Virus record (IMG/VR): IMGVR_UViG_3300012663_000706
DNA from: a virus
Taxonomy: Duplodnaviria > Heunggongvirae > Uroviricota > Caudoviricetes
Length of the DNA: 64,000 nt
Direction: 5' to 3' (one strand)
This document shows positions 19,688-61,362 of the stretch, piece by piece (positions within the stretch are counted from its first letter, which is position 1; each line of letters begins with the position of its first letter). Below the pieces are notes generated by a model. The model saw only the letters and a list, made by a program, of their open reading frames with translations. It was not told the origin of the DNA and did no database searches. Position numbers and translations under genes: made by a program.

Positions 19688-20182
19688 TTAGTCAGCTGAC
19701 TTCTCTTCTGCGTCTGCCGGAGCTTCTCCGTTCAATTCTACTTTAATCTCTTCGATTTTATTAGAGAACGCTTCTTTAATCATATTAAGAGCAGCTTCGT
19801 AAGCTTCTTCTCCATACTCTTCTTTGCACTCTTTACAAGCCTTAGCAGCTAAACCAGCAACTAGTGCTGCGTTTTCGCACATATAACTTTCAATCGTGTG
19901 ATCGTCATGTGCATCTGTTTCCCAAGTCTTCGCTTCAGCAATTACGCTTTCGTAGCATCTTTCTAATTGTTTAGAAACTTCTTCAGCTTTTTCTTCTTCT
20001 TTAGTTTCTTCAGCTTCAGGGGCCGGAGTTTCTTCAGCTTCGTTAGTTTGTACTTTGTCAGCTTCGACTTCAGTTTCTTCAACATCTTTTTGTTCAGGTT
20101 CGCTTACAGCCTGAACATCTTTTTCGATTTCTTCAGAACGGTCCATTTCGGAAACAAACTGATCAAATGATTTATATCTCAT
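19688..20182 (-). CDS. Acidic putative internal head protein
   Basis: Leader MRYKSFDQFVSE resembles the T4 capsid-targeting sequence; Glu-rich. Confidence 0.6.
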   Translation of the reverse strand: MRYKSFDQFVSEMDRSEEIEKDVQAVSEPEQKDVEETEVEADKVQTNEAEETPAPEAEETKEEEKAEEVSKQLERCYESVIAEAKTWETDAHDDHTIESYMCENAALVAGLAAKACKECKEEYGEEAYEAALNMIKEAFSNKIEEIKVELNGEAPADAEEKSAD

Positions 20183-20215
20183 TTCTTTTAATTTTTTTTG
20201 ATTATTAAGTATATA

Positions 20216-20677
20216 TTACAAATTTCCGTCTTTTTCTGGAGTTTTGCCAATAGTGTAGCCTTCAGGGCAATGGCCCCATATTAATAAAGACTTAAGCCAT
20301 CTGGTCATTTCACCATCTCTGAAGAAATAAGGTGCTTTCATATTCTTTTTCATTCCAATCATTCGACTGTTAAATGAAACTTGTTTACCGCACCAAAACC
20401 ACATCGTAGGAGTCCAATTCTTTTCGGCATCAGAGTAAGATTTTCCGGTTGGAATCATCTTAATTAGCATTTCAGCAGATTCTTTTCCACTGTCAATGTC
20501 ATTTGCTTCAGCTTCTTTGCTTGTTAAACCAGCATCTTTGCCATCATCTTCTCTAAAGTTCTTAATCTGAGCAGGAGACATATTAATTAATTTGTTCCAC
20601 TCAGTCCAAGTTTCTTTAGAAGGTTCGGCAGAACGGTCTTCAGCTTCGAATAAGAATTGTTTAAATGATTTAATCAT
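20216..20677 (-). CDS. DUF3140-like protein with capsid-targeting-like leader
   Basis: INMSPAQIKNF...RWLKSLLIWGH pattern; leader MIKSFKQFLFEA. Confidence 0.6.
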   Translation of the reverse strand: MIKSFKQFLFEAEDRSAEPSKETWTEWNKLINMSPAQIKNFREDDGKDAGLTSKEAEANDIDSGKESAEMLIKMIPTGKSYSDAEKNWTPTMWFWCGKQVSFNSRMIGMKKNMKAPYFFRDGEMTRWLKSLLIWGHCPEGYTIGKTPEKDGNL

Positions 20678-20928
20678 TACGCTTTAGGCTGCTTCTTTTT
20701 GTATTTTCTTTTAGGCTTAACTGGTGCCGCATCGGCTTTAATAACTTTTTCTTTTACTTCTTTCGGTAAAACATCCATTTTAGGAGTAGGAATTTCAGTT
20801 TCTTTGTATTTCGAGTTAAGCTCGTCTAAAAAGATTTCAGTACTGTTTCTCTTGTCAGTAAATTTGCCAGCAATTCTATATGCAATATAGAGCAAAGCTG
20901 CTAGAATAGTGATTGTAAATAGATTCAT
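20677..20928 (-). CDS. Small membrane-anchored protein
   Basis: N-terminal hydrophobic helix and basic tail. Confidence 0.6.
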   Translation of the reverse strand: MNLFTITILAALLYIAYRIAGKFTDKRNSTEIFLDELNSKYKETEIPTPKMDVLPKEVKEKVIKADAAPVKPKRKYKKKQPKA

Positions 20929-20965
20929 AATTTAAATTTTAGTTCTTTTTATATATCATTAAAAC

Positions 20966-20993
20966 AAAAAGAGCCCTTTCGAAAAAGGGCTCT
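20966..20993 (-). terminator. Intrinsic terminator
   Basis: Stem AGAGCCCTTT/AAAGGGCTCT with flanking A-run (T-run on the minus strand). Confidence 0.75.
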
Positions 20994-21015
20994 AACCAAC
21001 ATAAGAAGGTTGTTA

Positions 21016-21261
21016 CTATGGCTGGGGTGTTTGACTTGGTTCGCCAGTAGGAGTAGTATTTTGTTTAAACAATACTTCTAATGTCGCAATTAGGCCGTTT
21101 GCTTCGTCTACCTTTCTGACTAGTTTATCCATCTCATCAATGATTTGAGGATGCTCGCCAATACCGACTGAATTACCAAAGTAAACTTCCATAGTAGCTA
21201 GTGCTTCTTTCTTTTGAGCTTCGTATCTTGCGAATAAAGCTTCTACTTTTAATGATGACAT
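21016..21261 (-). CDS. Small conserved-type phage protein (GIGEH motif)
   Basis: VGIGEHPQIIDEMDK coiled-coil motif; class-2 promoter upstream. Confidence 0.65.
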   Translation of the reverse strand: MSSLKVEALFARYEAQKKEALATMEVYFGNSVGIGEHPQIIDEMDKLVRKVDEANGLIATLEVLFKQNTTPTGEPSQTPQP

Positions 21262-21287
21262 AATTTAATTTTGTTTTGTTATGATAA

Positions 21288-22229
21288 TTATATTTGTTCG
21301 ACTAGGATTGTTTCATATTTTTTTAGATAATTTATGAGCGCATGGTCTTTTGCTTTAGCTTCTAAGTCAACATCGATCGATAATCCGTAAGAATTAACCT
21401 TTTCGTAGATGTAGTCGGCATGGGCACGATTAACAACTGACGAATCCTCGTGAATTTTCTTACATGAACTATAATGAACTAGCTGACGAATCCCTTCTGG
21501 CCAAGTAGTAGCTGCCAAATATAAGGCATCTTTTTCTGGCATTGGGTTGTCATAACACCAGTGGTGGTGATAGTCAAATACGATTGGAATTCCGGTAGCT
21601 GGAGATAGAATATTACACAAATCTTCGATAGAATATTGCGCTTTTTTATCGTCATTCTCGACAGTAAGGCGGGTTTTTACCGACTCGTCTAGAGTATCGA
21701 ATGCTTTGATAAAACGCTGAATAGAATCTTCTTTGCCGTTGGCCGTAGTATTGATATGGATATTGATTGCAGCTTCTTGAGTTCTAGGTAGACCCATAAG
21801 ATCCATGAATTCACCATGTTGATTAAGTTCTTTAATAGAACGGGTAACCACGGCTGGATTCATACTTGCAATTACACAAAAATGGCCAGGATGGAAGGTT
21901 AATCTTTGGCCAGCGTCCATTGCAATTTTACCAGCACCTTTAAGAAGATTAGAAATTTTAGAATAGTCTGGTAAGTCTTTAAGCTCATATTCAGACATCC
22001 ATGGCATCATATCAGAAGACATTCGGTACAACTTGACACCGTGTTGATTATTCCATTTAATGATTTCGATGAGGTCTCTGACGTTGTTAAGAGCAAGCTC
22101 GCTAGCATAATTGATACCCTTCTGTTCGAAAGTTCTTTTAATCATACCGCGACCGATTGTAATACCTTTTTCTTGCTGAAGGGTTAGATTTATACAGCAA
22201 TACCCGAATCTATTCTTCATATTCTCCAA
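21288..22229 (-). CDS. uvsE: UV-damage endonuclease UvsE/UvdE
   Basis: GYCCIN, YRMSSD, RLTFHPG, TVENDD, DYHHH, RAHADY and LEAKAK. The start may be 22220. Confidence 0.92.
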   Translation of the reverse strand: MENMKNRFGYCCINLTLQQEKGITIGRGMIKRTFEQKGINYASELALNNVRDLIEIIKWNNQHGVKLYRMSSDMMPWMSEYELKDLPDYSKISNLLKGAGKIAMDAGQRLTFHPGHFCVIASMNPAVVTRSIKELNQHGEFMDLMGLPRTQEAAINIHINTTANGKEDSIQRFIKAFDTLDESVKTRLTVENDDKKAQYSIEDLCNILSPATGIPIVFDYHHHWCYDNPMPEKDALYLAATTWPEGIRQLVHYSSCKKIHEDSSVVNRAHADYIYEKVNSYGLSIDVDLEAKAKDHALINYLKKYETILVEQI

Positions 22230-22353
22230 TTACGTTGTTTCTCCACCAGTTTTTAAATTTAGAATCGTCAGACATTTTAGCAATTCTAGCGTCTAAGACA
22301 AAAGGACCTATTACGATAATAAGTCCAGTTATTATATAGAGAATTAGTCCCAT
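22210..22353 (-). CDS. Small membrane protein (47 aa), below the ORF-track cutoff
   Basis: Translated by hand: MGLILYIITGLIIVIGPFVLDARIAKMSDDSKFKNWWRNNVIGEYEE; fills the gap. Confidence 0.5.
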   Translation of the reverse strand: MGLILYIITGLIIVIGPFVLDARIAKMSDDSKFKNWWRNNVIGEYEE

Positions 22354-22748
22354 TGTTTCTCATATTTGTACCAATGGTCAGCTCCTGCACAATCCATTAA
22401 AGAATCTAGGATAATAATATCCATGTCTTTGCCGTTGATGTTGTTAATAAAATCGTAAATTAATTGATGAGCTTCTTCGACATCTTCTGTCAATTGGAAT
22501 GCAGCTTCATTGAGAGCAGATATGGCTCGAGTTACAACAGTTTCATTGTTAGAATATCTGGTTCCTGGATAGAAATCTCCATGTGGAGCAATTTCGTTGA
22601 TTGATTTGAATATATCTTCATTAGTATTCCTTAATCGATAGACGCTGATTGCAGTTTCTATGATTGGTTTAATTTTACTAACGTCTGGCCATGGATTACG
22701 ACCTGATATTCCATTTGCTTTTACGTTTGATGCTTCGATTTTTTTCAT
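22344..22748 (-). CDS. Hypothetical early protein
   Basis: 134 aa ORF directly after a class-1 promoter. Confidence 0.65.
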   Translation of the reverse strand: MKKIEASNVKANGISGRNPWPDVSKIKPIIETAISVYRLRNTNEDIFKSINEIAPHGDFYPGTRYSNNETVVTRAISALNEAAFQLTEDVEEAHQLIYDFINNINGKDMDIIILDSLMDCAGADHWYKYEKQWD

Positions 22749-22758
22749 TTTGTTTATT

Positions 22759-22800
22759 TGTTATATGTAAATATAAACATTTTTCTTGACATAGAAAAAC
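22759..22800 (-). promoter_or_regulatory. Class-1 (early-type) promoter
   Basis: TTTATATTTACATATAAC core shared by 10 intergenic sites. Confidence 0.7.
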
Positions 22801-22810
22801 TTTTATTCAA

Positions 22811-22990
22811 TTATTTTTTAAATTTATTACCTCGTACAGTTGTATGAATATGGATTGCCCATGTATTGAAATCAGGTTTCTTAGAAGATTCGAATGTTTT
22901 CATTACCCTTGGTTGACCAGGAATTGGGTAATCTACAGGTTCTCCAGGAATTTCTCTTTTAAATAGAAGATCGTTGATTAGTTTTTTCAT
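22811..22990 (-). CDS. Small hypothetical protein (59 aa)
   Basis: Translated by hand: MKKLINDLLFKREIPGEP...; fills the gap. Confidence 0.5.
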   Translation of the reverse strand: MKKLINDLLFKREIPGEPVDYPIPGQPRVMKTFESSKKPDFNTWAIHIHTTVRGNKFKK

Positions 22991-22993
22991 AGT

Positions 22994-23230
22994 TTAGTTT
23001 TTTCTTACAAAAATCATTTCCTCTTCCCATGAACCAGATTCTAATTCTAGGTTGACACGACTAAGAGCATTTGTATATTTCTTTGGGTTACATGCCATAT
23101 CTACGGCAATGGTGGTAAATTCTCCAGAATCAGAAGGATCGACGTTTAAGAATCCACAATATTCAGGATGGTTTTTATCTAACTGATAGTCTCCGCTAAT
23201 CATGCTTAGATACTGTTCTAATTGAGTCAT
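22994..23230 (-). CDS. Hypothetical protein
   Basis: Start moved to ATG 23230 (MTQLEQY) to avoid overlap with the upstream gene. Confidence 0.55.
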   Translation of the reverse strand: MTQLEQYLSMISGDYQLDKNHPEYCGFLNVDPSDSGEFTTIAVDMACNPKKYTNALSRVNLELESGSWEEEMIFVRKN

Positions 23231-23231
23231 A

Positions 23232-23519
23232 TTATTTAGTTTTATAAAGATCAGTTGATGAGAATGCAAATCCAACGGTGTATTTACCATTAGTACCTTT
23301 GACTAAATATCTGCGACATCTGCGTCTAGTCGATGGATTTGTTAAGTTTACTAAATGGTGATTGAATGAACTACTTCTAGTGTATTCAGGTTTTCCTTGG
23401 CAGATTGTCTGGTAATGAGTGTCCATTTCTTTATAAGAAACTTCACCATTAAAGTATACGTAATCTAAGATTTCCTGAGTGATCCAACCGTGTTGTCCTT
23501 TTTTTAATCGAGTATTCAT
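23232..23519 (-). CDS. Hypothetical early protein (possible winged helix)
   Basis: 95 aa ORF directly after a class-1 promoter. Confidence 0.6.
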   Translation of the reverse strand: MNTRLKKGQHGWITQEILDYVYFNGEVSYKEMDTHYQTICQGKPEYTRSSSFNHHLVNLTNPSTRRRCRRYLVKGTNGKYTVGFAFSSTDLYKTK

Positions 23520-23536
23520 TGTGTTATTGTTAATTT

Positions 23537-23600
23537 GTTATATGTAAATATAAACATTATTTTTCAATCGGTAAAACTTTTATTCAAAAAGTTATTAACA
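23537..23600 (-). promoter_or_regulatory. Class-1 promoter with upstream TGTTAATAAC box
   Basis: Core motif plus box at 23591-23600. Confidence 0.75.
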
Positions 23601-23603
23601 ATT

Positions 23604-23852: not shown

Positions 23853-23868
23853 TGTGTTATTGTTAATT

Positions 23869-24917: not shown

Positions 24918-24919
24918 AA

Positions 24920-26639: not shown

Positions 26640-26890
26640 GATTCTAGTTCTTTTATTATTTTTTTAAGTTCTAAACACTTCTCATATTCTTCCTTGGCCT
26701 CAAACCAGTTTATAATAAAAGTTATTGCTTCAATTTTTTGTTCAATTGTCGAAGAGCTTTTAAGGGCATCTTGTGTTTTATTAACGATGGCATCATAAAC
26801 CATGTCCATCATTTTTTCTCGCGATGCTTTTTTAATGCTATTAAAAAAACTAAAACCATCGTCGTCTAAAGGTAAATCATCTTCTGTCAT
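26633..26890 (-). CDS. Small protein with C-terminal UVR-like motif
   Basis: [18 protein letters not shown]. Confidence 0.65.
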
Positions 26891-27693
26891 TCCAATTCTT
26901 TAATTTTTTTAACTAAGTCTAACTGCGCTTCTGTTAGACCATGAAAATTCGCATGTACTTTAACCATTAGGTTCCCATACTCATTGTTCTTACTGTTATA
27001 TATTGGCATTCCTTTTCCTGGAATTCTCAATATTCTACCAGATGCGGTTTTAGCTGGAACGTCTATTTTATATTTGCCAAATGGGATTTCTACTTCAATG
27101 TTGGCACCTAAAATCAGGTCATAAAAATGAAGGTAAGCATCTACCCATATATCGCTTCCTTGTAGAATTAATGAATCGTCTGGATTGATATTAATATTAA
27201 TAATCAGATCTCCTCTTTGAGCGTTACTATTAAACCTATTGTAATCTCCTCGGCCATAGACTTTTAATACCATTCCATTGTGTAAACCTTTTCCAAAATC
27301 TACTCTAACTGAATCGTGTCCAAAATCAAAAGTTTTACTACATCCATTATAGGCTTCTGCTATAGTGAATGTCGCTCTAACGGTAACATCAGCTCCTTTA
27401 GAATTTTGTCTACTACTAAAGTTTTTGTCAAAGTCTCCAGACCAATTACCATATTGGTTAAATATGTCCTGAAAATTAAACTCTTTAAAGGTAGATTTTC
27501 CATCATACTGATCGCGTTTAACTTGATCAGATAATACCTCATACGCCTCTTGGATCTGCTGAAATTTATCAGTAGCGTCTGGTTTGTCTAGATTCCGGTC
27601 TGGATGGTGAAGTTTTGCAAGATTTCGGTAAGCCGATTTAATCTCGTCCTGTGTTGCTGCCTTTTGAACCCCTAATATTTGATAATAATTCAT
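26887..27693 (-). CDS. dnaJ: DnaJ-family co-chaperone (class B/CbpA-like, no Zn finger)
   Basis: NYYQILGV...HHPDRN J-domain plus DnaJ C-terminal domain; start set at 27693. Confidence 0.9.
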
Positions 27694-29619: not shown

Positions 29620-30564
29620 TTACTTCTCTAATTTCCAGATAGGATTTTGTTTCGTATTTTGAGCAGAATCTTCTGCTTTAAATTTCTTTAATAGTTCTAT
29701 TGACTCTTGACTTAATTCTGTTTCGTAAAAGTCTTCGTAGATTCTTTTGTACAATTCAGTCATGATGCCAAACAGGGCTCCAGGTTCTGAATTCATTTCA
29801 AAGACGTAGATTTTACCATCTTCGGTTTCAGCCATATCGATTGCATAAAAATCTAGATCAGAATGCATATCTGAAAAATATCGACAAGCCTTAACATGAG
29901 AATCTTTTATCTTCTTAATATCCTTACAGATATAAGAGAAATTAGTTTCTTTTTCTGGATCTTTTTTAGCAATATCGGCTGTTTCTTCGTCCATTGGGAT
30001 TCTCTGCGCCCATTGAATAAGTTCTCCTCTCCATAACCAGTATCTGTGCTCTTCTTTAATTGAAATCTTTTCAGAGAATGAGGTAAATTTACTAAGGTCT
30101 GCATTTTCGAATTCTTTTGCATCCTTGAATACTGTTATCCCAAGGCCACTGTGCTCATTGTCAGGTTTTGCAACAATTGGGAATGTAAGTTTATCAACAT
30201 CCTCTGGCGCAGTTACAGTAGGGATAATATATTCACTATCAACGTGTAATTTGTAGAATTCTGATTTTGAAGAGATACTCGTACGAGCATCTGGATGGTT
30301 GTATATTTGATATTCTTGAATTGCACCAGCTTCCATGAACTTCTCAAGAGTTTCTCTATCGTAGTTTAATACTGGCATGCTTTTAGGATAATCAACAGGA
30401 TCCATGTCTTTTGTGATTATTACCCAATATTCAGAAGTATGATATGCCGGTCCGGTAATGAAAGAATCGTCGAGATCCTTTCTTCGAGTGATACACACTT
30501 TCTTGAAATCATCTGCGACGACTGCTTCGTTTATAAATTGTTCAAATGTTAATAGAGATTTCAT
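29620..30564 (-). CDS. ATP-grasp (RimK-like) ligase with capsid-targeting-like leader
   Basis: FPIVAKPDNEHSGLGI, EHR, FYAIDM and FEMNSEPG; leader MKSLLTFEQFINEA. Confidence 0.75.
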   Translation of the reverse strand: MKSLLTFEQFINEAVVADDFKKVCITRRKDLDDSFITGPAYHTSEYWVIITKDMDPVDYPKSMPVLNYDRETLEKFMEAGAIQEYQIYNHPDARTSISSKSEFYKLHVDSEYIIPTVTAPEDVDKLTFPIVAKPDNEHSGLGITVFKDAKEFENADLSKFTSFSEKISIKEEHRYWLWRGELIQWAQRIPMDEETADIAKKDPEKETNFSYICKDIKKIKDSHVKACRYFSDMHSDLDFYAIDMAETEDGKIYVFEMNSEPGALFGIMTELYKRIYEDFYETELSQESIELLKKFKAEDSAQNTKQNPIWKLEK

Positions 30565-30581
30565 ACTCTATATATTATATT

Positions 30582-35800: not shown

Positions 35801-36901
35801 TTATTCAATTGGTTTTAGCAACTGGTTGTGTGTGATTAAACCATTTGCAATATACGTATCGGTATTTTCAACGTCCATTGAATATACAATCTTTCTATCT
35901 TCGCCTTGTGAAACATTAATTGATGTTATTTCAATACTATTTCCTTCCTTGTCAACTAGGAAATCTCCAACTTGAATATTCCTTGCTTGCTCAAAAAACC
36001 AATCATTTCCTCTTTTAATAAAATGGGCATGTGATTCAGAAGTTTCAATTAAGCCATTATTAAAGTTATGAATTCTTTGTGAAGCATATGGACGTATACC
36101 CATAACAACAACTTCAGTTTCTATTAAATTTAAAGTATCAGTTGACCATCCGATAATAGTATCGTCTTCAGGAGCATCAGAAATTTTCATGCCTTTTAAA
36201 AGATCACCAACTCTAATTTTTTCAATTAACTTTGTAGTTCCATCGGCCATTTCAATACTAGTTCCTTTGACGGTGCACGTGTTGTCGCAACTTTCGCCGG
36301 CCTGCCAACCTCCATAATCTACGCTCTGCATACATATATATTCTCCCCATGAGAAACCAGATTGATAGTTGCCGTCACAGTCTATACCCCAGTAGTCGTA
36401 ATCAACGTAAAAATAATAACATTCACTAGGTGGCGGTGGCGGGTTATAATTAAATACGGCTCCTACATAGTAAATGTTCTCCAGACCAGGAGTTGCAAGA
36501 GGAACAGCAGTTGTTTGACCATATGACCAAACTTCATACGGATCCATTCTCAACCAATATCCAAATGTCCAATTCGGAACCTCCTCCACAGTAAGATATA
36601 TATTCTCATTAGGGTGACTGGTGGTGGTGTGATGGGCATAGGGTTGCTCTCCTAGATACTGTTGCGGACCAGTATCGTATGGAGATACCATCATCACATA
36701 CCCTGAACCAGCATCGACAGCAAGCGTCCAACATCTGCTCATAATCCAACTATTCGCTGCAAACGACATGTTTCCAGTACCGGCATATCCAAAAAATTGA
36801 CCTCTCATACTAGATGCCGTATTAAATCCACTACCGTCACACGCTAAATAACTTCTTAGTGTAGATAGCGCATAACCGCCTGATTGATAACTTAATCTCA
36901 T
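35801..36901 (-). CDS. Protein with C-terminal Hint domain
   Basis: C209-TVKGTSIEMADG, H-x-H block B region, YSMDVE-DTYIANGLITHN ending at N359, then QLLKPIE. Confidence 0.85.
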   Translation of the reverse strand: MRLSYQSGGYALSTLRSYLACDGSGFNTASSMRGQFFGYAGTGNMSFAANSWIMSRCWTLAVDAGSGYVMMVSPYDTGPQQYLGEQPYAHHTTTSHPNENIYLTVEEVPNWTFGYWLRMDPYEVWSYGQTTAVPLATPGLENIYYVGAVFNYNPPPPPSECYYFYVDYDYWGIDCDGNYQSGFSWGEYICMQSVDYGGWQAGESCDNTCTVKGTSIEMADGTTKLIEKIRVGDLLKGMKISDAPEDDTIIGWSTDTLNLIETEVVVMGIRPYASQRIHNFNNGLIETSESHAHFIKRGNDWFFEQARNIQVGDFLVDKEGNSIEITSINVSQGEDRKIVYSMDVENTDTYIANGLITHNQLLKPIE

Positions 36902-37666: not shown

Positions 37667-40429
37667 TTATTTGTTCTCTAAGTTTTTAACTTTTTGTGAA
37701 AGTTCTTTAATAGCTTCAATAAGAACACCAGTTAAATCGGTATAACTTACTGTCTTATATCCATCTGGATTATTAACCACTGCATCTGGTAGGATTAATT
37801 CTACTTCTTGAGCGATCAAACCAGTTCTTTTACGACCGAATGTATCAGTGTTTAATGTATATTCAACTCCTCTAAGAGATTCAACCAGTGAGAGCGCGTT
37901 GTCTACAGTTTTAATATTAGACTTAAGATTAACATCTGAAGTAATAGTTACATCGACGAATGATGGAGAATCTACAGTTCTAACATGTTGGTTCATTGCG
38001 TTTGCATAACCATTGAAAGTAATGTAAGAAGTCCAGTTTGCACTAGTTAAAACAGCTCTCCAATTATAGAATGTACCATTAGTTACTCTACGTACTCCAA
38101 AAACATCATCATGAAAACCATGTGAAAGTTGGAATCCATAGTTACTTGCCCATGAATTACCCATGGAGTTAATCATGTTTTGCCAATCGCCAGTATATGC
38201 TCCATTTGTACTCGGCGGCATAAAAAAGAAACCTGATGATTGGTTATATGCATTTGAATCTCCAGTATTTGTGCTCTTTCTGTCACCATCACCGTATACA
38301 ATTCGACCAATACCTACACCACTAATAGAACTAGCGTCGTATGATGCTGGTCCTGGAGGGCCTGGAGGGCCTCCACCACCTGGTGTTCCATTAGTTCCGT
38401 TAGTTCCGTTTGTTCCTGGAGATCCTGTAAATCCTTGTGGACCAGGACCTCCTGGTGTTCCGTTTGTTCCATTACCTCCTGGAGATCCTGTAAATCCTTG
38501 TGGACCAGGACCTCCTGGTGTTCCGTTTGTTCCATTACCTCCTGGAGATCCTGTAAATCCTTGTGGACCAGGACCTCCTGGTGTTCCGTTTGTTCCATTA
38601 CCTCCTGGAGATCCTGTAAATCCTTGTGGACCAGCAACCGATGAAGGTGATCCATTGGTTCCATTAGTTCCAGCAGTTCCTTGAGGACCAGTTGGTCCTT
38701 GATTTCCTTGAGGACCCGATGCTCCATTACTTCCGTTTGTTCCAGCAGCTCCTTGAATACCATTTGATCCTGCTATTCCATCAACTCCAGAAGGACCTTG
38801 TCTACCTTGAGCTCCTTGTGGTCCTGCTACAGAAGATGGAGTTCCAGCGGTTCCAGCAGTTCCTTGAATACCTTGAGGACCCGCAACCGATGAAGGAGTT
38901 CCACCTGGACCTGTTGGTCCTTGACTTCCTTGTGGACCGGGACCTCCATTTGTTCCATTAGTTCCAGCAGTTCCTTGTGGTCCTGTTGGTCCTTGTGAAC
39001 CTTGCGCTCCATTAGAACCATTAGTTCCATTTGTTCCAGCAGTTCCTTGAAGACCAGTTGGGCCTTGGTTTCCTTGAGCACCAAAAGTACCTTGAATACC
39101 GGTTGGACCTTGATTACCTTGAGCACCAAAAGTTCCTTGAATACCAGTAGGACCCTGATTACCTTGGAATCCGGTAAATCCTTGGAATCCAGTAGGACCT
39201 TGGTTTCCTTGAGCACCTGTAGTTCCTACAGTACCTTGAATACCAGTTGGACCTTGATTACCCTGGAATCCAGTTGTTCCAACAGTACCTTGAATACCAG
39301 TTGGACCTTGATTACCTTGTTGACCGAATGTTCCTTGAATACCAGTTGGGCCTTGATTTCCTTGAGCTCCGGTATTACCTTGAGCTCCTGTGTTTCCTTG
39401 AATACCTTGAACGGACATGTCGACATTAAATGTCCATGCTCCTCCGCTTCTTAAATATAATTTACCATAATCAGGATCTGACTGTGGTAAAGTTCCTCCA
39501 ACTAAACCAAATTGTCCATTTGGACAAGATGCATCAGCTAGAAGTAATGCTAAACTATTATATGTTTGATAGATTACAAATCCTTGTCCTACAGTTCCTT
39601 GAATACCTGTTGGACCTTGGTTACCTTGAGCACCTGTTGTTCCTACTGTTCCTTGAATACCAGTCGGTCCTTGATTACCTTGAGCGCCAAAGGTTCCTTG
39701 AATACCGGTTGGACCTTGATTACCTTGAGCACCTGTTGTTCCTACAGTACCTTGAATACCAGTAGGACCTTGGTTTCCTTGAGCACCAAATGTTCCTTGA
39801 ATACCAGTAGGACCTTGGTTTCCTTGAGCACCGGTAACACCAATTACACCCTGGAATCCAGTAGGACCTTGATTACCTTGGAATCCAGTAGGACCTTGGT
39901 TTCCTTGTGCTCCTGTTGGACCAGTTGGGCCTTGTCGACCTTGAAAACCTTGATCTCCTGTTGGTCCTTGTCTGCCTTGAGCTCCTTGAGTACCAACAGT
40001 TCCCTGAATACCGGTTGGTCCTTGATTACCTTGAGCTCCTACAGTTCCCTGAATACCAGTTGGACCTTGACTACCTTGTTGTCCTACAGTACCTTGAATA
40101 CCGGTTGGTCCTTGATTACCTTGAGCTCCTACAGTTCCTTGAATACCGGTTGGTCCTTGATTACCTTGAGCTCCTACGGTACCTTGAATACCAATAGGAC
40201 CTTGGTTACCTTGAAATCCAGTTGGACCTTGATTACCTTGAGCTCCTACAGTTCCTTGAATACCAGTCGGACCTTGACGACCTTGAGCGCCAGTAGCGCC
40301 AATTACACCTTGTGGTCCAGTTGGACCTTGAGAACCTTGTGGACCGTTAGGACCAGTAGTGATTCTATTTTCAAGCGATGTTATTGATGTTTGTAGGTTC
40401 TGGACCTGCTTAATTTTTATTACTGACAC
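37667..40429 (-). CDS. Collagen-like fibre protein with C-terminal S74 intramolecular chaperone
   Basis: Long Gly-X-Y runs; SDVNLKSNI...GLIAQEVE...VLIEAIKEL; GTG start. Confidence 0.9.
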   Translation of the reverse strand: MSVIKIKQVQNLQTSITSLENRITTGPNGPQGSQGPTGPQGVIGATGAQGRQGPTGIQGTVGAQGNQGPTGFQGNQGPIGIQGTVGAQGNQGPTGIQGTVGAQGNQGPTGIQGTVGQQGSQGPTGIQGTVGAQGNQGPTGIQGTVGTQGAQGRQGPTGDQGFQGRQGPTGPTGAQGNQGPTGFQGNQGPTGFQGVIGVTGAQGNQGPTGIQGTFGAQGNQGPTGIQGTVGTTGAQGNQGPTGIQGTFGAQGNQGPTGIQGTVGTTGAQGNQGPTGIQGTVGQGFVIYQTYNSLALLLADASCPNGQFGLVGGTLPQSDPDYGKLYLRSGGAWTFNVDMSVQGIQGNTGAQGNTGAQGNQGPTGIQGTFGQQGNQGPTGIQGTVGTTGFQGNQGPTGIQGTVGTTGAQGNQGPTGFQGFTGFQGNQGPTGIQGTFGAQGNQGPTGIQGTFGAQGNQGPTGLQGTAGTNGTNGSNGAQGSQGPTGPQGTAGTNGTNGGPGPQGSQGPTGPGGTPSSVAGPQGIQGTAGTAGTPSSVAGPQGAQGRQGPSGVDGIAGSNGIQGAAGTNGSNGASGPQGNQGPTGPQGTAGTNGTNGSPSSVAGPQGFTGSPGGNGTNGTPGGPGPQGFTGSPGGNGTNGTPGGPGPQGFTGSPGGNGTNGTPGGPGPQGFTGSPGTNGTNGTNGTPGGGGPPGPPGPASYDASSISGVGIGRIVYGDGDRKSTNTGDSNAYNQSSGFFFMPPSTNGAYTGDWQNMINSMGNSWASNYGFQLSHGFHDDVFGVRRVTNGTFYNWRAVLTSANWTSYITFNGYANAMNQHVRTVDSPSFVDVTITSDVNLKSNIKTVDNALSLVESLRGVEYTLNTDTFGRKRTGLIAQEVELILPDAVVNNPDGYKTVSYTDLTGVLIEAIKELSQKVKNLENK
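38414..38634. repeat. Exact 63-bp tandem repeat (about 3.5 copies) inside the collagen gene
   Basis: Units start at 38414, 38477, 38540 and 38603; encodes GSPGGNGTNGTPGGPGPQGFT. Confidence 0.9.
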
Positions 40430-46268: not shown

Positions 46269-46949
46269 TTATTTATTCTTTTTTACAATAGAGTCTATAA
46301 TACCATATTCTAAAGCTTGGTTAGCGTCTAACCATAAATCTCTTTCGGCATCTTTTTTAACTATTTCTGGATCCTTGTCGCAATATTCTCCTAAAAGAGT
46401 AAATAGAGTATCGTTAATTTTGATCCATTCCTTCCAGTCAATAGCAGCATCTTGAATATTTCCGCTAAAACCTCCAGAAGATTGGTGTAACATTGTCGTA
46501 CTGAATCTTAATGAAGACCTTTTACCTTTAGTTCCGGCTCCTAACAAGATCGATCCCATTGATGCGGCCATACCGGTATTTACGGTCTTAATATCACTCT
46601 TAATGTAATCCATAACATCCACCATTGATAATCCGGATTTACAGCTTCCGCCACCAGAATCAATATGCATTGTAATATCGTCGTTGTTTACTGAATCCAG
46701 AAACATCAACTGAGCCTGTACAATGGTTGACATATTATCGTTAACTTCTCCAGCTACCCATAATAATCGATCCATCATTAATCTAGAGAAAATGTCCATT
46801 TGACTAACTCTTAATTCTCTCTCTTCTAAAATATACGGTGTTAAAGATCCTTGGACCTGTTTACCATAATAGTCTAATTTTAAAGATGAGATATTATGCT
46901 CAGATTTGGCATATCTATTAAATTCTTTGTCTTTGCTGTAGTAGTTCAT
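46269..46949 (-). CDS. clpP: ATP-dependent Clp protease proteolytic subunit
   Basis: LTPYILEER...MDIFSRLMMDR (Bacteroidota type); catalytic AASMG, MLHQ and ERD intact. Confidence 0.95.
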   Translation of the reverse strand: MNYYSKDKEFNRYAKSEHNISSLKLDYYGKQVQGSLTPYILEERELRVSQMDIFSRLMMDRLLWVAGEVNDNMSTIVQAQLMFLDSVNNDDITMHIDSGGGSCKSGLSMVDVMDYIKSDIKTVNTGMAASMGSILLGAGTKGKRSSLRFSTTMLHQSSGGFSGNIQDAAIDWKEWIKINDTLFTLLGEYCDKDPEIVKKDAERDLWLDANQALEYGIIDSIVKKNK

Positions 46950-47257
46950 AATTGTTCTAGTATTTCTTTAATAATTTTACAAGTTTCGTATTCCTCTATT
47001 TCTAAAAAATAGGTGTGTGCTTTGTTTAATGATTTTTTCCAGTTTTCTTTTTCTAAACTAATATCGTATTTGCTTCCGTTGTCATCTTCGAACTGGCATA
47101 ATATATTATGCTTGATTGTACCATCTAATGTGTTTAAAACATGCGAAACTATTTGTCTATTTAACGTGTCTTCTCCTTCTCTTTCAAGATAATTACTAAG
47201 TAACTTATTGGAATGATTCCGCCCTAGCATTATCTTTATTATTGGTACTTTTTTCAT
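46946..47257 (-). CDS. Small protein with C-terminal UVR-like motif
   Basis: YFLEIEEYETCKIIKEIL; coupled to the clpP start. Confidence 0.65.
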   Translation of the reverse strand: MKKVPIIKIMLGRNHSNKLLSNYLEREGEDTLNRQIVSHVLNTLDGTIKHNILCQFEDDNGSKYDISLEKENWKKSLNKAHTYFLEIEEYETCKIIKEILEQL

Positions 47258-48113
47258 TAATGGTTACGTTTAAGTATTTAGATAAAACGGCTAGATATTC
47301 TACATTTTTAGAATTTTCATTAGTAGAGATTGTGTCGATTTCGTCAATGTAATCTTTACCAATTTCGGTTAAGGCAAAATTATTAAAATCATCAACATAG
47401 AATAATGGTTTTGTAAGCTCCATAGAATATTGATTATCTGATTTTCCGTTTTCTAGAATGTTTTCAGATAATTCAAAATGTCTTTCGTAATAATGGATAT
47501 TATCGGCAAAATGAGCATACTCTCCAATTTCTAAAGTTGGATATGTTTCTTTTAACCAAAGGTACATGTGTTGGTGGACCACTGCGAAAAAAGGAGCGTC
47601 AAATGTAAGACCATAGAAAATATCATTAGATCTCATTTGAACTTTCATATTCAATTTATTATCTCTAATAAAGAAGTTAAGGTACATTGTACAAACAAAA
47701 TCTTTATTGCCTGCAAATTGATACTTTGGCTGATTCAAGAATGCGATTGCTTGACGAGTATTTACATCAGCTTTTAAACTATCTAAACACCATTTTAACT
47801 GGGGTCCAAATAGTAATGCACCATAGTTTGAATTAATTTCGTTTGTACCAGGATTTGTAATACCTTTCCAGAAATTAGAGAACTTATTAATGTAATCGAT
47901 ATCACAGTCTTTTTTAAGATACCATGCTACTTCTCCAGCGAAATATTTCCAGTTAAACGCTCTATCTTTAAATGATGCAAAAGGCTGAGTAGAATCTACT
48001 GAGTATTGACCATATATTAATTCACGAACTTTTAAACTTCTTGGCTGAGATTCAGAACCGTTTTTATTAATGTCTTCGATTATATCGATAAACGTGTTTG
48101 AGAAATTGCTCAT
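47205..48113 (-). CDS. Thymidylate-synthase-superfamily enzyme, probable dCMP hydroxymethylase (T4 gp42-like)
   Basis: INSNYG, DFVCT and MRSNDIFYGLTFD, with Asp at the position where ThyA has Asn. Confidence 0.75.
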   Translation of the reverse strand: MSNFSNTFIDIIEDINKNGSESQPRSLKVRELIYGQYSVDSTQPFASFKDRAFNWKYFAGEVAWYLKKDCDIDYINKFSNFWKGITNPGTNEINSNYGALLFGPQLKWCLDSLKADVNTRQAIAFLNQPKYQFAGNKDFVCTMYLNFFIRDNKLNMKVQMRSNDIFYGLTFDAPFFAVVHQHMYLWLKETYPTLEIGEYAHFADNIHYYERHFELSENILENGKSDNQYSMELTKPLFYVDDFNNFALTEIGKDYIDEIDTISTNENSKNVEYLAVLSKYLNVTINEKSTNNKDNARAESFQ

Positions 48114-48139: not shown

Positions 48140-50158
48140 TTATTTTAAGGAAAGTTTACTCGCATCTTTCTCATGAGTGATCGTATAGAAAAACTCAGTC
48201 GATGGAGTAATTGCCTTGTCGATAATCGAATCTGCTAATAAATCTTCTACAAAATGCTGGATCGCTCTTTTAATAGGTCTTGCACCATAGGCAATATCAT
48301 AACCTTCTTTAACTAAAAACAATTTAGCTGATTTTGTAAATTTAATCGTGATTCCCTGATCTAATAATCTTTCAGAAACTTCTGCTAATTCAAGTTCTAC
48401 AATCTTAAGAATAGATTCTTCAGATAATTGCTCGAATAGAATCATGTCGTCTAATCTATTTAGGAATTCTGGTGGGAATTTATTCTTTAATTCTTTTCTG
48501 ATCACCGACTCCATTTTAGCCTTTTGGCTAGATATTGAACCATCTGTAAAACCAATACCTACTCCAAATTCAGAGAATTTACGGGCACCGATATTAGAAG
48601 TCATAATGATAATAGTATTTGTAAAATCAATTGTTCTACCTAAAGAATCAGTTAATCTACCGTCATCTAGAACCTGCAATAAAGTATTGAAAATATCTGG
48701 ATGTGCTTTTTCAATCTCATCAAATAATACTACTGAATAAGGTTTTCTACGAACTTGCTCGGTTAATTGACCGCCTTCTTCGTATCCAACATATCCTGGA
48801 GGAGCACCAACTAGACGAGAAACTGTAAATTTCTCAGAGTACTCGCTCATATCGATTCTAATTAAATTATCTTCTGAACCGAAATAATATTCTGTAAGTG
48901 CCTTTACTGTTTCTGTTTTACCAACTCCAGTTGGACCAATAAACATGAATGAACCAATTGGCTTTTTAGCTGAAGATACTCCAGTTCTAGAACGCTTAAT
49001 AACTCTACATAAAGAATCTACCGCTTCGTTCTGGCCAATTATAATTTTATTCAATTCTTTATTCATTCCTATAATCATCTTACTCTCATCTCCGTTTAGA
49101 CGAGTAACTGGAATTCCAGTAATTTCAGCGATTGTAGCAGCAACATCTTGGTCGGTAACATGTCTACGTTTATCTCGTAAACTCTTTTCCCAATCTTTTA
49201 ATTTAGCCTCGATTTCTTTTCTTTTACCAAGTTCAGAATCTCTAAAGTTTGCAGCAGCTTCGTAATCTTGTTTAGATACCGCCTCGTGTTTTTGTTTTCC
49301 AAACTCTTCGGCATCATCTTCCATTTTTTTAACGTAAGGAGGAACCTTAATTTCTAGTAAATGTATCTTAGCACCAACTTCGTCCATTATATCGATAGCC
49401 TTGTCCGGCAATTCTCGTTGGGTGATATATCTTTCAGATAACTTTACACAAGCTTCAATGGCTTCAGGAGTATAAGTTACCGAGTGGTGGTCTTCGTATT
49501 TCTCTTTAATTTTATTTAAGATTTCGATAGCTTCATCAGTTGAAGGTGGATCTACGAAAACTTCTTGAAAACGGCGAGTTAGGGCTCCATCCTCTTCAAT
49601 ATGTTCTCTATATTCGTCGGTTGTTGTAGCACCAATACAATGAACTTGTCCTCTTGCAAGGGCAGGTTTTAGAATATTAGAAGCATCTAAAGATCCAGAA
49701 GAACCTCCAGCGCCGATCAAAGTATGAATCTCATCAATGAATACTATAACGTCCTGATTTGACTTAAGTTCGTCAACAATCATTTTCATTCTCTCTTCAA
49801 ATTCTCCACGGTATTTTGTACCAGCTACGATTGTAGTTAAGTTAAGAGAGATAATTTTCTTATTTAATAGAGTACGTGCAACTTTCTTTTCGACTATGCG
49901 CTGAGCAATTGCTTCGACGATTGCAGTTTTACCAACTCCTGGATCTCCCAAGATAATTGGATTATTTTTCTTTCGACGAGAAAGAATTTGGCAAACACGA
50001 TGAACTTCTTTTTCTCTACCGATAATTGGATCTAATTTACCTTCAGCGGCTAGCTGTGTTAAATCTTCTCCAAACTGATCTAGAAACGGAGTTCTACCTT
50101 TTCCACCTTTTTTGGGACTAGTTCCCGTGTTATTTATATCGTCTATGTTATCCATCAT
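48140..50158 (-). CDS. clpC: ClpC-like AAA+ unfoldase lacking the N-terminal Clp-repeat domain
   Basis: Two Walker A motifs ([16 protein letters not shown]), UVR M-domain [11 protein letters not shown] and ClpP-docking IGF loop. Confidence 0.9.
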
Positions 50159-57177: not shown

Positions 57178-57179
57178 GA

Positions 57180-57740
57180 TATAGCCGTCCGGTATTCCGG
57201 TAAAGAAAGGACCTGTTCGTGGATGTTCGGGTCCTTTTGGCATGTCCGGGGCTCGTTAGCTAATCCGACCGGTAGTAAATTCGCGGTTACTCCCCCCCCC
57301 CCAGTACTTAGAGATTTTTCGGTGTGTAGCGGCAAAAAGTGCATAACCGAGTGTCCGGTGGTCCAGATGCTCAGAAATCACCTTCGGCAGTGTAGGGTAG
57401 GCGCTAGAGTCCCGGAGTGTGTATGTGTGAGTTGAGGTTTAAGGGACCCTGAGGGTCCTACATGGAGGCTTGAACACTATATATCTTGTTCTCTACGTAC
57501 ACGCGCGCGTAGGGTAGATTATACTTAGGACCAGGGTAGGCCTTGGAGTACCTGGATACATGGAGGGAGTAGAGGAGGGGTTACGAGCCTAGGAGAGACG
57601 GGTACTATATCTTTATTGTCTTCTTATTGCTGATCTTCTTTATCCTTATCTATGTTTAGATCGTATTGACTCTTATAAAGATTTTTTATTTTATTGGTTA
57701 TTGGGTGGGCCGAGAAGTTCTGGCTGTCCGGTCCCTAGGC
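57180..57740. other. Second GC-rich non-coding block at the strand convergence
   Basis: Terminator-like stem at about 57207-57238, C11 run at 57292-57302, palindromes, and motifs shared with 51450-52767. Confidence 0.55.
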
Positions 57741-57742
57741 AT

Positions 57743-57771
57743 AAAAAAAGAGGACTGTTTAGGTCCTCTTT
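57743..57771 (-). terminator. Intrinsic terminator
   Basis: Stem AAAGAGGAC/GTCCTCTTT with A-run. Confidence 0.8.
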
Positions 57772-57794
57772 GGTAGATTAGTTTTTGGTTTGGA

Positions 57795-58259
57795 TTAGAA
57801 TCCTGCTAATTTAACTTCTTTCGTGTTTGCTTTCGCATTGCTTAGAGTTTCGGCTGCGAAGTCATACTCTTCTTGAGAATAGAAATCAGCCTCTCTTGTT
57901 AAAAGATCTAGGAATACTAGGTCATCAAATTTGCACTTTAAGAACTTTGTTACTGGTTCCCATTTTGCTTCCATTGCGTCAGTCTCAGCATCAGCTTCAG
58001 AGGCAACATCAGCTAATAGAGTAGATGCGTCTTCTATCTTAGAAAGATCGCCATCGAAACCTGCTAATAAGAATTTTACTAGGTCTTCTTTATCGCCTTC
58101 TGCGCAAATATAACCAGAATATCCTTTATCATCGTTGTGTGATACTAGTTTCAGTCCACCTTGTCTAAAGGCGATTAGGCCTGCTTCAACTGTACCGTGT
58201 GGATCGTTTTCGTTTAATTTTGACGCTACAAAGGCTTCAAATAATTTAATGTGTTTCAT
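57795..58259 (-). CDS. Putative internal head protein
   Basis: Leader MKHIKLFEAFVASKLNE; GATATATA upstream; start set at 58259. Confidence 0.65.
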   Translation of the reverse strand: MKHIKLFEAFVASKLNENDPHGTVEAGLIAFRQGGLKLVSHNDDKGYSGYICAEGDKEDLVKFLLAGFDGDLSKIEDASTLLADVASEADAETDAMEAKWEPVTKFLKCKFDDLVFLDLLTREADFYSQEEYDFAAETLSNAKANTKEVKLAGF

Positions 58260-58295
58260 CGTGTTATTATTTTTGTATTGTTTATATATCTGCAT

Positions 58296-58325
58296 AAAAA
58301 AAGAGGACGGTTTAGGTCCTCTTTT
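58296..58325 (-). terminator. Intrinsic terminator (near-copy of 57743-57771)
   Basis: Same stem with one mismatch in the loop. Confidence 0.8.
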
Positions 58326-58349
58326 AACGGGGTAGTTGTCGCGTTCGGG

Positions 58350-58601
58350 CTATTGTGGTATACAAATTGCAACGATTGGATCGACTGGCGTCCATTCAGT
58401 TGGGTATACCGGTTCGGTAATAATTGGTTCTTCACCCTCAACTAGGATTGGAGCGGTGATGATTGGTGGTTCGTATAGGTAGATGTTGTGATTTGGATGC
58501 TGGGCTTCTAGTCTTTCTAGAGTTGTTCCAGGCCAATGGTTAACATGATATACTGAATCGTTAATTTCTAGTATTCTTTCGTAAATTAGTGTTGTTGCCA
58601 T
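58350..58601 (-). CDS. Small Pro/Glu-rich hypothetical protein
   Basis: 83 aa ORF between a late-type motif and a terminator. Confidence 0.55.
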   Translation of the reverse strand: MATTLIYERILEINDSVYHVNHWPGTTLERLEAQHPNHNIYLYEPPIITAPILVEGEEPIITEPVYPTEWTPVDPIVAICIPQ

Positions 58602-58622
58602 AATTATATCTTTTAGTATATA

Positions 58623-58955
58623 TTAAAATTCGAATGGTGGAGTTCCGTAGTCAGCGTGTTTAACTGCATACCATGTGCTCTTTGGTCCTTGAATATACCA
58701 CCAACCTCGGTCTGAATCGACTAGTTGGTACTCTCCTTTTAGGGATACGTCTTGAAATTTAGAGAAGTACTTAGTTACTGGAGTTCCGTCTGGCCAGGTT
58801 TTATTAGTTGACTGTGCTTTAAATGTTGTACCATCGAATTGGCCTAAGAACACCTTAGCATCATGTCCGTCTTGGATTTCGTCTTTTGCAAATTGATTAA
58901 CTGCGGTTTCGACTGCCTCCATAAAAAATTGTTCGAATATTTTAACTTGTTTCAT
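58623..58955 (-). CDS. Putative internal head protein
   Basis: Leader MKQVKIFEQFFMEA. Confidence 0.65.
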   Translation of the reverse strand: MKQVKIFEQFFMEAVETAVNQFAKDEIQDGHDAKVFLGQFDGTTFKAQSTNKTWPDGTPVTKYFSKFQDVSLKGEYQLVDSDRGWWYIQGPKSTWYAVKHADYGTPPFEF

Positions 58956-58958
58956 GAT

Positions 58959-59369
58959 TTATAATTTATTTTCGATTCCTAATTCCTCTTCGAATTGTAG
59001 AATATCTTCGTATGTTGTATCTAATAGTTCTGCTTCGACTTTGGCGCGGTTTGATTTCTTGCCAGTTACGATTATCTCGACTTGGTGTTTGCCTGTTGCG
59101 GTTGCCTGGTCGTAGTGTGCCATAATATTCTTATAATGAACATCGGAACTGGCCATCTCCTTGATTTCGATTACTTCCTTACGGATTTCGTGTGGTAATT
59201 CTGACCAAGGTAATTTTACTAGGTCTTCGGTTGGTTGGTCGACCCCGAGTCTGCGTTGAATTAGTTTCTTACGTTCAACTTGGTCGGCTCTGTTCCATAA
59301 CTCATTACCCCATCGCTTCATCTCTTTCGACTCGGTTAGGAATTCTTCATATAGTTTAATATGTTTCAT
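58959..59369 (-). CDS. Putative internal head protein
   Basis: Leader MKHIKLYEEFLTES. Confidence 0.65.
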   Translation of the reverse strand: MKHIKLYEEFLTESKEMKRWGNELWNRADQVERKKLIQRRLGVDQPTEDLVKLPWSELPHEIRKEVIEIKEMASSDVHYKNIMAHYDQATATGKHQVEIIVTGKKSNRAKVEAELLDTTYEDILQFEEELGIENKL

Positions 59370-59370
59370 C

Positions 59371-60069
59371 TTACTTAAGTTCTTTGATAAATCTTTTTAC
59401 AAAACTCTTGTTGGCTCCTACGCCTGTTCCAGCAATAATGTCTCTAACATCGTATTTCTCTTTAGAATCCTTATACTGTTTAACATAATCGGCTAACTTT
59501 CTACCATCTATTTTATTATCATCAATGAAATTTTGTGCTGCATCTTGGCCGCATCCAGTAACAATATGAACATAATGAGCGTCTTGTGATACTGCTTCGT
59601 CAATCGAACCTGAAATCAGTTTGTATTTCCATGATTTTAGTTTCTTTTCTAGCTCTGCTTTGTCCTTTGCTTCAAAATCAAACTCATCATTATATCCATA
59701 ATATCCATTGCCGCGTTTTTCAATATGGGTTAATCCATCTTCACCGTCATATACTGCAATTTCTCTATCGTTATTATAAGTACCTTCGTCTAAAGATTCG
59801 CCAATTTGCTTTACTGGCATGCGCTTGTACTTATTGTAGAGATTATTAGATAGGATATAGTCCTTCATGAATCTTTCTAATTCTACAACACTTCCAAATA
59901 CATGACCACCCGCATCAATATCATAGCCTCTGTAGTATTGGTTATATTTAACACGATCGCCGCTTTGAGAAACTTTCTTAAAGATGATTCCATCATTTCC
60001 CTCTATTTGATCAGGAAACTTTTCCTTTGCTTCACTTATGAAATCTTCAAATAATTTAATCTTCTTCAT
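59371..60069 (-). CDS. Putative internal head protein (multi-module)
   Basis: Leader MKKIKLFEDFISEA; internal SLDE and SIDE. Confidence 0.65.
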   Translation of the reverse strand: MKKIKLFEDFISEAKEKFPDQIEGNDGIIFKKVSQSGDRVKYNQYYRGYDIDAGGHVFGSVVELERFMKDYILSNNLYNKYKRMPVKQIGESLDEGTYNNDREIAVYDGEDGLTHIEKRGNGYYGYNDEFDFEAKDKAELEKKLKSWKYKLISGSIDEAVSQDAHYVHIVTGCGQDAAQNFIDDNKIDGRKLADYVKQYKDSKEKYDVRDIIAGTGVGANKSFVKRFIKELK

Positions 60070-60096
60070 TTGCTTAATTATATTTTATTATCTATC

Positions 60097-60654
60097 TTAC
60101 GAGTGCTTGGCTAAATGCGTCTTAATCGATACATTGTCAAGTTCTCTTCCGAGTTGATTAATTAAGTCTATATTGTTAACATCGTCATCAAAGAACGTAA
60201 TGTCAGTATAGCCTTTTTCAACAAACCATTTCATCGCTTCTTTTTTCTTTTCTGCGATTGAACCTGATAATTTCATTTTTGGGTCATTAATTGCCCATAT
60301 AAATTCGCGTTTAACATCAAATCCAACATGGTCTTTTAACCAAGTATAAATCATGTCTTGATCGTCTCTCGCTGTAATTACTCCAATCGCATTTCCTCTC
60401 TTGTAATTCTTTTCTAAAATATCTAAGTATTTTTGAATTAATTTTCCAGCTTTCATGATGTCTAAGCTCTTAAAATCATCAAAATTTAAGATATGTTTCT
60501 TGCTACTTTGATAACTATTGAACTCCTCTGGAGATAATTCGAAGCAAGTTCCATTCTTCGAATCACAAACTTTAATCTTCGCTTGTGTGATAACTAATGT
60601 GTCGTCCAAGTCGAAAATTAGAATTTTTGTCTTTGAATATGCTTCTTTTATCAT
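60097..60654 (-). CDS. HAD-superfamily hydrolase
   Basis: FDLDDTL, ITAR, K and FFDDD; start set at 60654 (MIKEA). Confidence 0.8.
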   Translation of the reverse strand: MIKEAYSKTKILIFDLDDTLVITQAKIKVCDSKNGTCFELSPEEFNSYQSSKKHILNFDDFKSLDIMKAGKLIQKYLDILEKNYKRGNAIGVITARDDQDMIYTWLKDHVGFDVKREFIWAINDPKMKLSGSIAEKKKEAMKWFVEKGYTDITFFDDDVNNIDLINQLGRELDNVSIKTHLAKHS

Positions 60655-60771
60655 TTTTATAGTAAATATGTGATTTTTATAGAAAAGGTGGTCACAGAGA
60701 ACCACTTGGCTTAATTATCTTTATCTTTATGATTGATTATATAGTCAAAAATATCAATCAACCAGTGTCAT

Positions 60772-61362
60772 CTAATCATTGATGTCTTGCTTGATTTGTT
60801 TGTCTAATGCATCAATTTTCTTCTTATCTTGTTGTACCATTTTACGTAAAGTACTCTTAATATCTGAATCGGCAAACCTCATAAGAGCTTCGGTCGATTT
60901 AAATCTTGCTTCTAATTTTATCTTAGAAACATATTTTGTAAGTGTCTCGTTTTCTTCTCCAATTGCATCCATCATTGTAATAATATCCTCTTCTTGAGCT
61001 TCTAGTAATTGAATTTTTACATCATGTGTACTTTCCATTTTATAGGAACTTGGCGCAGTAGGAGCATTATAATCATATTCATCATATTTGCTTCCTAGCT
61101 CCGTTTCAAAATGTGCAACCTCATCGCCTTCAATTTGCAACTTGCCAATTTCAATTCTAACTGAAACTAGTCGGTCTGCTAATTTATTTAATTGGCGTTT
61201 TTTAAGAGGATTCATAACTAATCCTTTGATAAAATCAAAGAATCCTTCTCCAACAAATTCTTCAATCTCTTCACGAGTCTGATAATCCTTTAAAGATTCA
61301 TAAATATTGTCAACCAATTCTTTACGGTCAAAATGTTCTTCAAATTGTTTAACTCTTTTCAT
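60772..61362 (-). CDS. Putative internal head/coiled-coil protein
   Basis: Leader MKRVKQFEEHF. Confidence 0.6.
   Translation of the reverse strand: MKRVKQFEEHFDRKELVDNIYESLKDYQTREEIEEFVGEGFFDFIKGLVMNPLKKRQLNKLADRLVSVRIEIGKLQIEGDEVAHFETELGSKYDEYDYNAPTAPSSYKMESTHDVKIQLLEAQEEDIITMMDAIGEENETLTKYVSKIKLEARFKSTEALMRFADSDIKSTLRKMVQQDKKKIDALDKQIKQDIND

Follow-up and report, generated by a model that had tools for sequence, protein, structure and literature searches.

A shared N-terminal leader on eight proteins of an uncultured phage resembles the T4 capsid-targeting sequence

Eight minus-strand genes in a 64,000-nucleotide stretch of the IMG/VR record IMGVR_UViG_3300012663_000706 (Caudoviricetes; a giant T4-like phage; hereafter the 64-kb window, or the window) encode proteins that open with a common leader of 12–17 residues, running roughly MKxIKLFEQF[ILV]xE. 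On the basis of sequence comparison and analogy, we favor, with moderate rather than high confidence, the interpretation that the leader serves as a propeptide which, as in phage T4, targets proteins to the capsid and is then removed; the virus particle probably contains the eight tagged proteins. This T4-type interpretation explains more observations than any of three rivals. We show the tag itself, that it is modular and confined to N-termini, and that in relatives it is genomically linked to a head module and protease. Our analysis covered the window and its relatives, and the leader count refers to the window.

In T4, a capsid targeting sequence is present on IPI, IPII, IPIII and Alt and is removed by the prohead protease gp21 (Mullaney and Black 1996, reviewed in PMC9026906 and PMC3012670). 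As reviewed from Black's work, the first ten residues are enough to have a protein packaged; residues 4 and 7 matter most for targeting, residues 8 and 10 govern processing, and gp21 cleaves after L/I-x-E. The N-terminus of IPII and IPIII in the T4 record is MKTYQEFIAE. Relative to T4, the window leaders contain a three-residue insert after the initial Met-Lys, which is followed by an aromatic residue, two acidic or amide residues, a second aromatic, I, L or V, any residue and Glu, and then usually by Ala or Ser. Six of the eight match all four mutationally mapped T4 positions at identical spacing. The first-pass annotation of this DNA had claimed eight such N-termini, and all of them are present, at the minus-strand ATGs 20182, 20677, 30564, 58259, 58955, 59369, 60069 and 61362. 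It had also described the bodies as unrelated, which is borne out by an all-against-all BLASTP comparison of the mature parts, in which every E-value exceeded 0.1. Its proposal of a T4-like leader used as a modular tag is supported, with the four mapped positions kept and the tag found on unrelated bodies.

For the leader-model scan that had been called for, we derived a position matrix from the eight leaders and ran it over all 61,294 positions in 229 proteins of the window and of IMGVR_UViG_3300021963_000037 (G005). G005 is a 139-kb collinear relative, collinear relatives being those with baseplate wedge proteins 66–83% identical to that of the window. The scores were bimodal and the hits N-terminal: 13 matches reached at least 19.6 bits, the next best score was 12.1 bits, and 12 of the 13 begin at residue 2–4. 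Three of the high-scoring matches are proteins found only in G005. The scan revealed no ninth leader in the window, and about one gene in ten bears the leader. Among identical residue pairs within the leaders, 37 use a different codon and 86 the same codon. Because identical leader residues so often use different codons, the sequences indicate that selection acts on the leader peptide and not on a DNA repeat.

Leader-like sequences also occur outside their usual place. The one internal high score and the 12.1-bit match both lie in G005 (loci L094 and L095, 85620–85668 and 89150–89191), at the very C-terminal ends of reading frames, directly before untagged genes. These sequences look like decayed or detached leaders and suggest that tags are gained and lost through small mutations. 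At 8579–9547 of L002, a 322-residue protein carries an N-terminal leader and a second full leader copy mid-protein; two tagged genes seem to have fused here.

The relatives encode a gp21-family protease and carry tagged proteins inside the head module. Peptidase_S77, the family of T4 gp21, was detected above the Pfam cut-off in the collinear relatives G001, G002, G005 and G009, and tblastn with the G005 protease region matched 1,774 phage records, including T-even phages and cyanophages. Each of the four relatives with a head module encodes, between portal and protease, one or two small proteins that bear the leader; T4 has the core proteins gp67 and gp68 at this place. The G005 order is portal, a 113-residue acidic leader-bearing protein, a protease fused to a long coiled coil and the major capsid protein; the T4 order is portal, gp67, gp68, gp21, gp22 and gp23. 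The coiled-coil scaffold part of the G005 protein (gene at 114741–116735) contains 6.7 [LI]xE sites per 100 residues, compared with 1.16 across the proteome, with a 14-residue period. T4 gp21 chops up the scaffold gp22, which contains 16 [LI]xE sites at a density similar to that of the G005 coiled coil and whose N-terminus, like the T4 targeting sequence, ends in I-A-E-A.

Modularity is most apparent for the 232-residue cargo encoded at 59371–60069, which has homologues with different leaders in other phage contigs. Among 120 homologues, pattern matching assigned 71 to the window leader type and 13 to a quite different type, and for each of the three sub-domains of the cargo there are cases that start directly after a leader Glu, with two or more leader types represented. 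That single sub-domains begin at this junction in other phages agrees with the anticipated tag-plus-cargo design. The close relative L001 has two separately tagged genes in place of the one for the 232-residue protein, shows a different gene order and has no counterpart of the gene starting at 58259. Of 55 homologues of the ATP-grasp cargo (29620–30564), 52 have retained the leader. When 23 sequences with identities as low as 28% were aligned, the Glu of the leader proved invariant and its second aromatic almost invariant.

Co-variation between cargo leaders and head-core proteins in another lineage adds indirect support to the tag-plus-cargo reading. The contig G006, from a T4-size phage of a different T4-like lineage, contains a tandem array of 17 or more genes, each starting with one of two other types of leader that both end in L-x-E. 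In its head module, the protein directly after the protease has one of these two cargo leader types, and the N-terminus of the scaffold resembles the other.

We also considered how the leader genes might be expressed. A promoter-like motif, [AGT]ATATATA[AGC], occurs 18 times in the window, with 13 copies within 70 nucleotides upstream of a same-strand start. It precedes baseplate genes in the window and portal, protease, sheath, tube and baseplate genes in G005, and because virion genes carry it upstream we infer that it represents a late promoter class. The motif stands, each time on the minus strand, before four of the six leader transcription units: at 20209–20217, 35 nucleotides before the ATG at 20182; at 20949–20957, 29 nucleotides before the gene starting at 20928, which heads the unit that includes the 20677 leader gene; at 30568–30576, 12 nucleotides before the ATP-grasp gene; and at 58282–58290, 31 nucleotides before the ATG at 58259. 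The earlier observation of a late-type motif before the leader genes or their operons holds for these four units, which carry the motif seen before virion genes.

The same leader could in principle target proteins to the prohead core for a different end, with the tagged proteins acting as assembly helpers or core fillers that, like T4 gp67 and gp68, are degraded and expelled at maturation and so do not reach the host as effectors. The acidity of the cargos, a property of gp67 and gp68, fits this alternative, as do the acidic tails of the tagged head-module proteins of the relatives. However, one cargo is a predicted well-folded ATP-grasp enzyme with conserved catalytic-type residues, and the cargo sets turn over among near relatives, which is unusual for assembly parts; we consider a core-filler role unlikely. 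The leader might instead address another partner, as a degradation signal for a phage ClpP and Clp-type AAA+ unfoldase, a chaperone handle or the site of a modifying enzyme. The window does encode ClpP (46269–46949), a two-ring Clp-type ATPase (48140–50158) and a DnaJ-like protein. Such a partner would nevertheless leave unexplained why the leaders agree with T4 at the mapped positions and end in [ILV]xE, why tagged proteins sit between portal and protease, and why the G006 scaffold N-terminus looks like a cargo leader. A modifying partner of the radical-SAM type has no signature in the window, and G005 offers one bare CxxxCxxC match in a 648-residue protein with no other support. Overall, we regard a different partner as distinctly improbable.

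A third possibility is that the shared start is a DNA-level by-product, either of a recombination or regulatory cassette or of a favored translation-start context in a host that does not use Shine-Dalgarno sequences. The leader genes indeed lack Shine-Dalgarno sequences and have A-rich upstream regions, and cassette shuffling is reportedly documented in T4-type phages. Against this stand the frequent synonymous codon differences inside the leaders, the persistence of the leader Glu and aromatics in homologues only 28–40% identical, the presence of the leader on only about a tenth of the genes and the use by other lineages of quite different leaders with the same [LI]xE end. We give a DNA-level origin very little credence.

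Several observations weigh against the T4-type interpretation. The 64-kb window itself lacks a head module and a protease, both of which were read from relatives, and the close relatives of the window phage are all uncultured. The head module of LR756500.1, a distant relative, has no tagged protein, and the cultured Tenacibaculum phage PTm1 has none between portal and protease. The ATP-grasp homologue of LR756500.1 (L105, 2728–3717) keeps the first half of the leader and lacks the leader Glu, with I-N-D in place of I/L-x-E; in T4, Asp at the leader Glu position blocks cutting and not targeting (PMC9026906). Two of the eight window leaders are without a canonical cut site at the usual place: the protein starting at 58259 reaches its first [LI]xE at residue 17, and that starting at 61362 lacks the usual end and has its first I-x-E at residue 22. 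Ahead of the leader units that begin at 60069 and 62043, the ATATATA motif occurs only in imperfect copies, and it is classed as late only from its presence before virion genes. The mature cargos are acidic (pI 4.2–5.9), unlike the basic internal proteins of T4, and so are not the small basic DNA-associated proteins that are typical of IPII and IPIII, a property that is not strictly defining.

If the T4-type interpretation is correct, the aromatic and hydrophobic core of the leader would dock each new protein onto the scaffolding core during prohead assembly, and a gp21-family head protease would then cleave after the leader Glu at [ILVF]-x-E. The mature protein would stay in the capsid with the DNA and would probably enter the next host. 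All of these steps, from docking and cleavage to retention in the virion and ejection, are proposed here by analogy with T4. The tag is modular, being attached in phages of the window's group to exchangeable cargo domains that include an ATP-grasp ligase. We also put forward, as a tentative and rather doubtful generalization, that capsid cargo in the window's uncultured group of giant T4-like phages follows a code readable from sequence. Under such a code, lineage-specific leaders would mimic the N-termini of a phage's own scaffold or core proteins, and any tagged domain would be packed and delivered. Pre-made delivered proteins, the ATP-grasp protein ligase among them, could then be listed from a genome, and they would turn over by domain shuffling.

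Should the tag work as in T4, particle-borne proteins would be predictable from sequence for uncultured jumbo phages, for which virion proteomics is impossible, and enzymes, not only small inhibitors, would be delivered with the DNA. The junction after the leader Glu would likewise offer a handle for loading foreign proteins into capsids. Foreign proteins have already been loaded into T4 capsids. The principle of capsid targeting is known T4 biology; what is gained here is breadth, through its proposed extension to another group of phages, rather than a novel mechanism.

The eight leader genes, all on the minus strand, are dispersed over the window. The first (19688–20182) encodes 164 residues with a very acidic, Glu-rich body and a predicted cut after residue 12, and it has an orthologue with the same leader in G005. 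The second (20216–20677; 153 residues, predicted cut after residue 11) encodes a DUF3140-like all-alpha cargo and belongs to a unit whose first gene (20677–20928, minus strand) encodes a predicted membrane protein of 83 residues without a leader. The protein itself does not hit PF11338 (DUF3140), but most of its homologues at 47–61% identity carry PF11338, and an Atlas lead to DUF3140 scored 0.87. Most homologues start with a short leader of the type MKSFxE[FY]. An AlphaFold2 model (mean predicted local distance difference test score (pLDDT) 83.6) is all-alpha, with the leader as a short detached helix; the model has no fold match in the PDB, and a profile search of PDB sequences was also empty.

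The third leader gene (29620–30564; 314 residues, predicted cut after residue 13) encodes a cargo that, by sequence and by model, is a predicted ATP-grasp ligase of the R2K clade, resembling RimK, LysX and Ddl. It matches PF14243 (ATP-grasp, R2K clade family 3) with 37.6 bits, above the cut-off of 26.3, and its AlphaFold2 model (pLDDT 90.8) retrieved Ddl, PsnB, LysX/ArgX and RimK in Foldseek with E-values of ~1e-11 and a probability of 1.00. In both AlphaFold2 models, the leader forms a short helix, predicted with low confidence, that stands apart from the fold.

The remaining five genes are found toward the end of the window. The fourth (57795–58259) encodes an acidic protein of 154 residues. 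An upstream in-frame ATG at 58295 is also a possible start; 58259 is more likely, because the extension overlaps the promoter-like motif at 58282–58290 and follows a hairpin and a T-run. The fifth (58623–58955; 110 residues) has a predicted cut after residue 13 and an orthologue with the same leader in L001. The sixth (58959–59369; 136 residues) has the core Y-E-E-F-L-x-E, the closest of all to T4 IPII and IPIII, and is followed in our list by the gene for the 232-residue protein described above, with three cargo sub-domains that are each tagged separately in other phages. The eighth (60772–61362; 196 residues) has an atypical leader end and follows, in one unit, a gene for a 226-residue protein (61363–62043) with a basic N-terminus, a metalloprotease-like H-E-x-x-H motif and no family match. 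This protein's gene directly precedes the leader gene, and the pairing is kept in L001. Six of the eight cargos could not be assigned to a family by searches of Pfam and PHROGs.

A second upstream motif, a highly conserved element of ~24 nucleotides with TTTACATATAAC, lies 21–45 nucleotides before small non-structural genes. It was found upstream of the minus-strand starts 22748, 23519, 23852, 29282 and 53226 and of the plus-strand starts 54044, 55760 and 56065, and it precedes none of the leader genes. The element is probably a second promoter class, early or middle, distinct from the ATATATA motif.

The window contains further features of note. The phage ClpP, the two-ring Clp-type AAA+ ATPase and the DnaJ-like protein (26887–27693) make a phage-run proteolysis and chaperone system possible. 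Two very long collagen-like fiber proteins with G-x-x repeats are encoded at 62055–64000 and 37667–40429, and a neighbor of a collagen-like fiber gene (35801–36901) has a weak C-terminal match of the Hint/intein type. Between convergent genes, ~600 base pairs (57180–57790) have no credible reading frame, are richer in G+C than their surroundings and include a C11 run; this gap contains no tRNA and no Rfam match, and its fold z-score of about −1.4 on either strand is not significant. The suggestions that the cargos counter host defence and protect modified-cytosine DNA found no support here: none of the evidence ties the cargos to defence systems, no cargo resembles IPI, and the window has only a dCMP deaminase (19103–19618) and a divergent thymidylate-synthase-like gene. 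The latter encodes a thymidylate-synthase-fold protein (47205–48113) that scores far below all thymidylate-synthase cut-offs and may be a pyrimidine-modifying enzyme.

The window is AT-rich, with genes almost entirely on the minus strand, and encodes T4-type baseplate proteins. Its baseplate wedge protein (1476–3296) shares 41% identity with the homologue in LR756500.1, an uncultured phage of 462 kb, and ~30% with those of Lak phages; phages of Tenacibaculum, Chryseobacterium and Flavobacterium gave weaker matches. At least 80 related contigs, 60–98% identical in the wedge protein, are found in IMG/VR. The largest of these, at 139–175 kb, are rated 47–67% complete, so that the window phage probably has a genome well above 200 kb. 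Shine-Dalgarno sequences are absent before the window genes, and a Bacteroidota host is therefore likely. A megablast search of phages with the leader cluster at 57.7–62.1 kb gave no match. In tblastn searches of 50,697 phage records, the 232-residue and 153-residue cargos had no match and the ATP-grasp cargo matched LR756500.1 alone, so that the cargos cannot be linked to any cultured phage with a virion proteome.

The window system is most readily compared with the internal proteins of T4. Both place a short N-terminal tag on otherwise unrelated proteins, with the same spacing of aromatic, aromatic, I/L and Glu and the same L/I-x-E end; in both, the tagged genes are dispersed and fast-changing; and the relatives of the window phage share with T4 a gp21-family protease and the gene order portal, core, protease, capsid. 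The two differ in that the window leader is three residues longer, that the cargos, acidic where the T4 proteins are basic, have no sequence homology to any T4 internal protein, and that the protease is fused to the scaffold in relatives. Tags here mark single domains that are fused or split among relatives, and the window system, unlike that of T4, is known from genes alone.

Two further systems invite comparison. In the hypervariable ip loci of T-even phages, at least 10 Ip families have been identified by their signal sequence, and Ip1–3 inhibit GmrSD type IV restriction enzymes (PMC12373910). Those loci and the window have in common one conserved leader, diverse bodies and a quick turnover of the set, as seen between the window and L001. 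The window cargos, however, show no signs of GmrSD inhibition or of hydroxymethyl-cytosine DNA, and one of them, the ATP-grasp ligase, is an enzyme and in that respect more akin to T4 Alt. In the giant phages phiKZ, 201phi2-1 and SPN3US, the propeptides of ejection proteins are cut at S/A/G-x-E or A-x-E by a gp21-related protease (PMC5694885). The likeness extends to a giant phage with a homologous Glu-cutting protease and N-terminal propeptides thought to target the prohead. The phiKZ-type propeptides, however, are mostly longer than 100 residues and have no common short tag, whereas the window leader is short and common, and its predicted [ILVF]-x-E cut site is that of T4 rather than the S/A/G-x-E or A-x-E of the phiKZ type.

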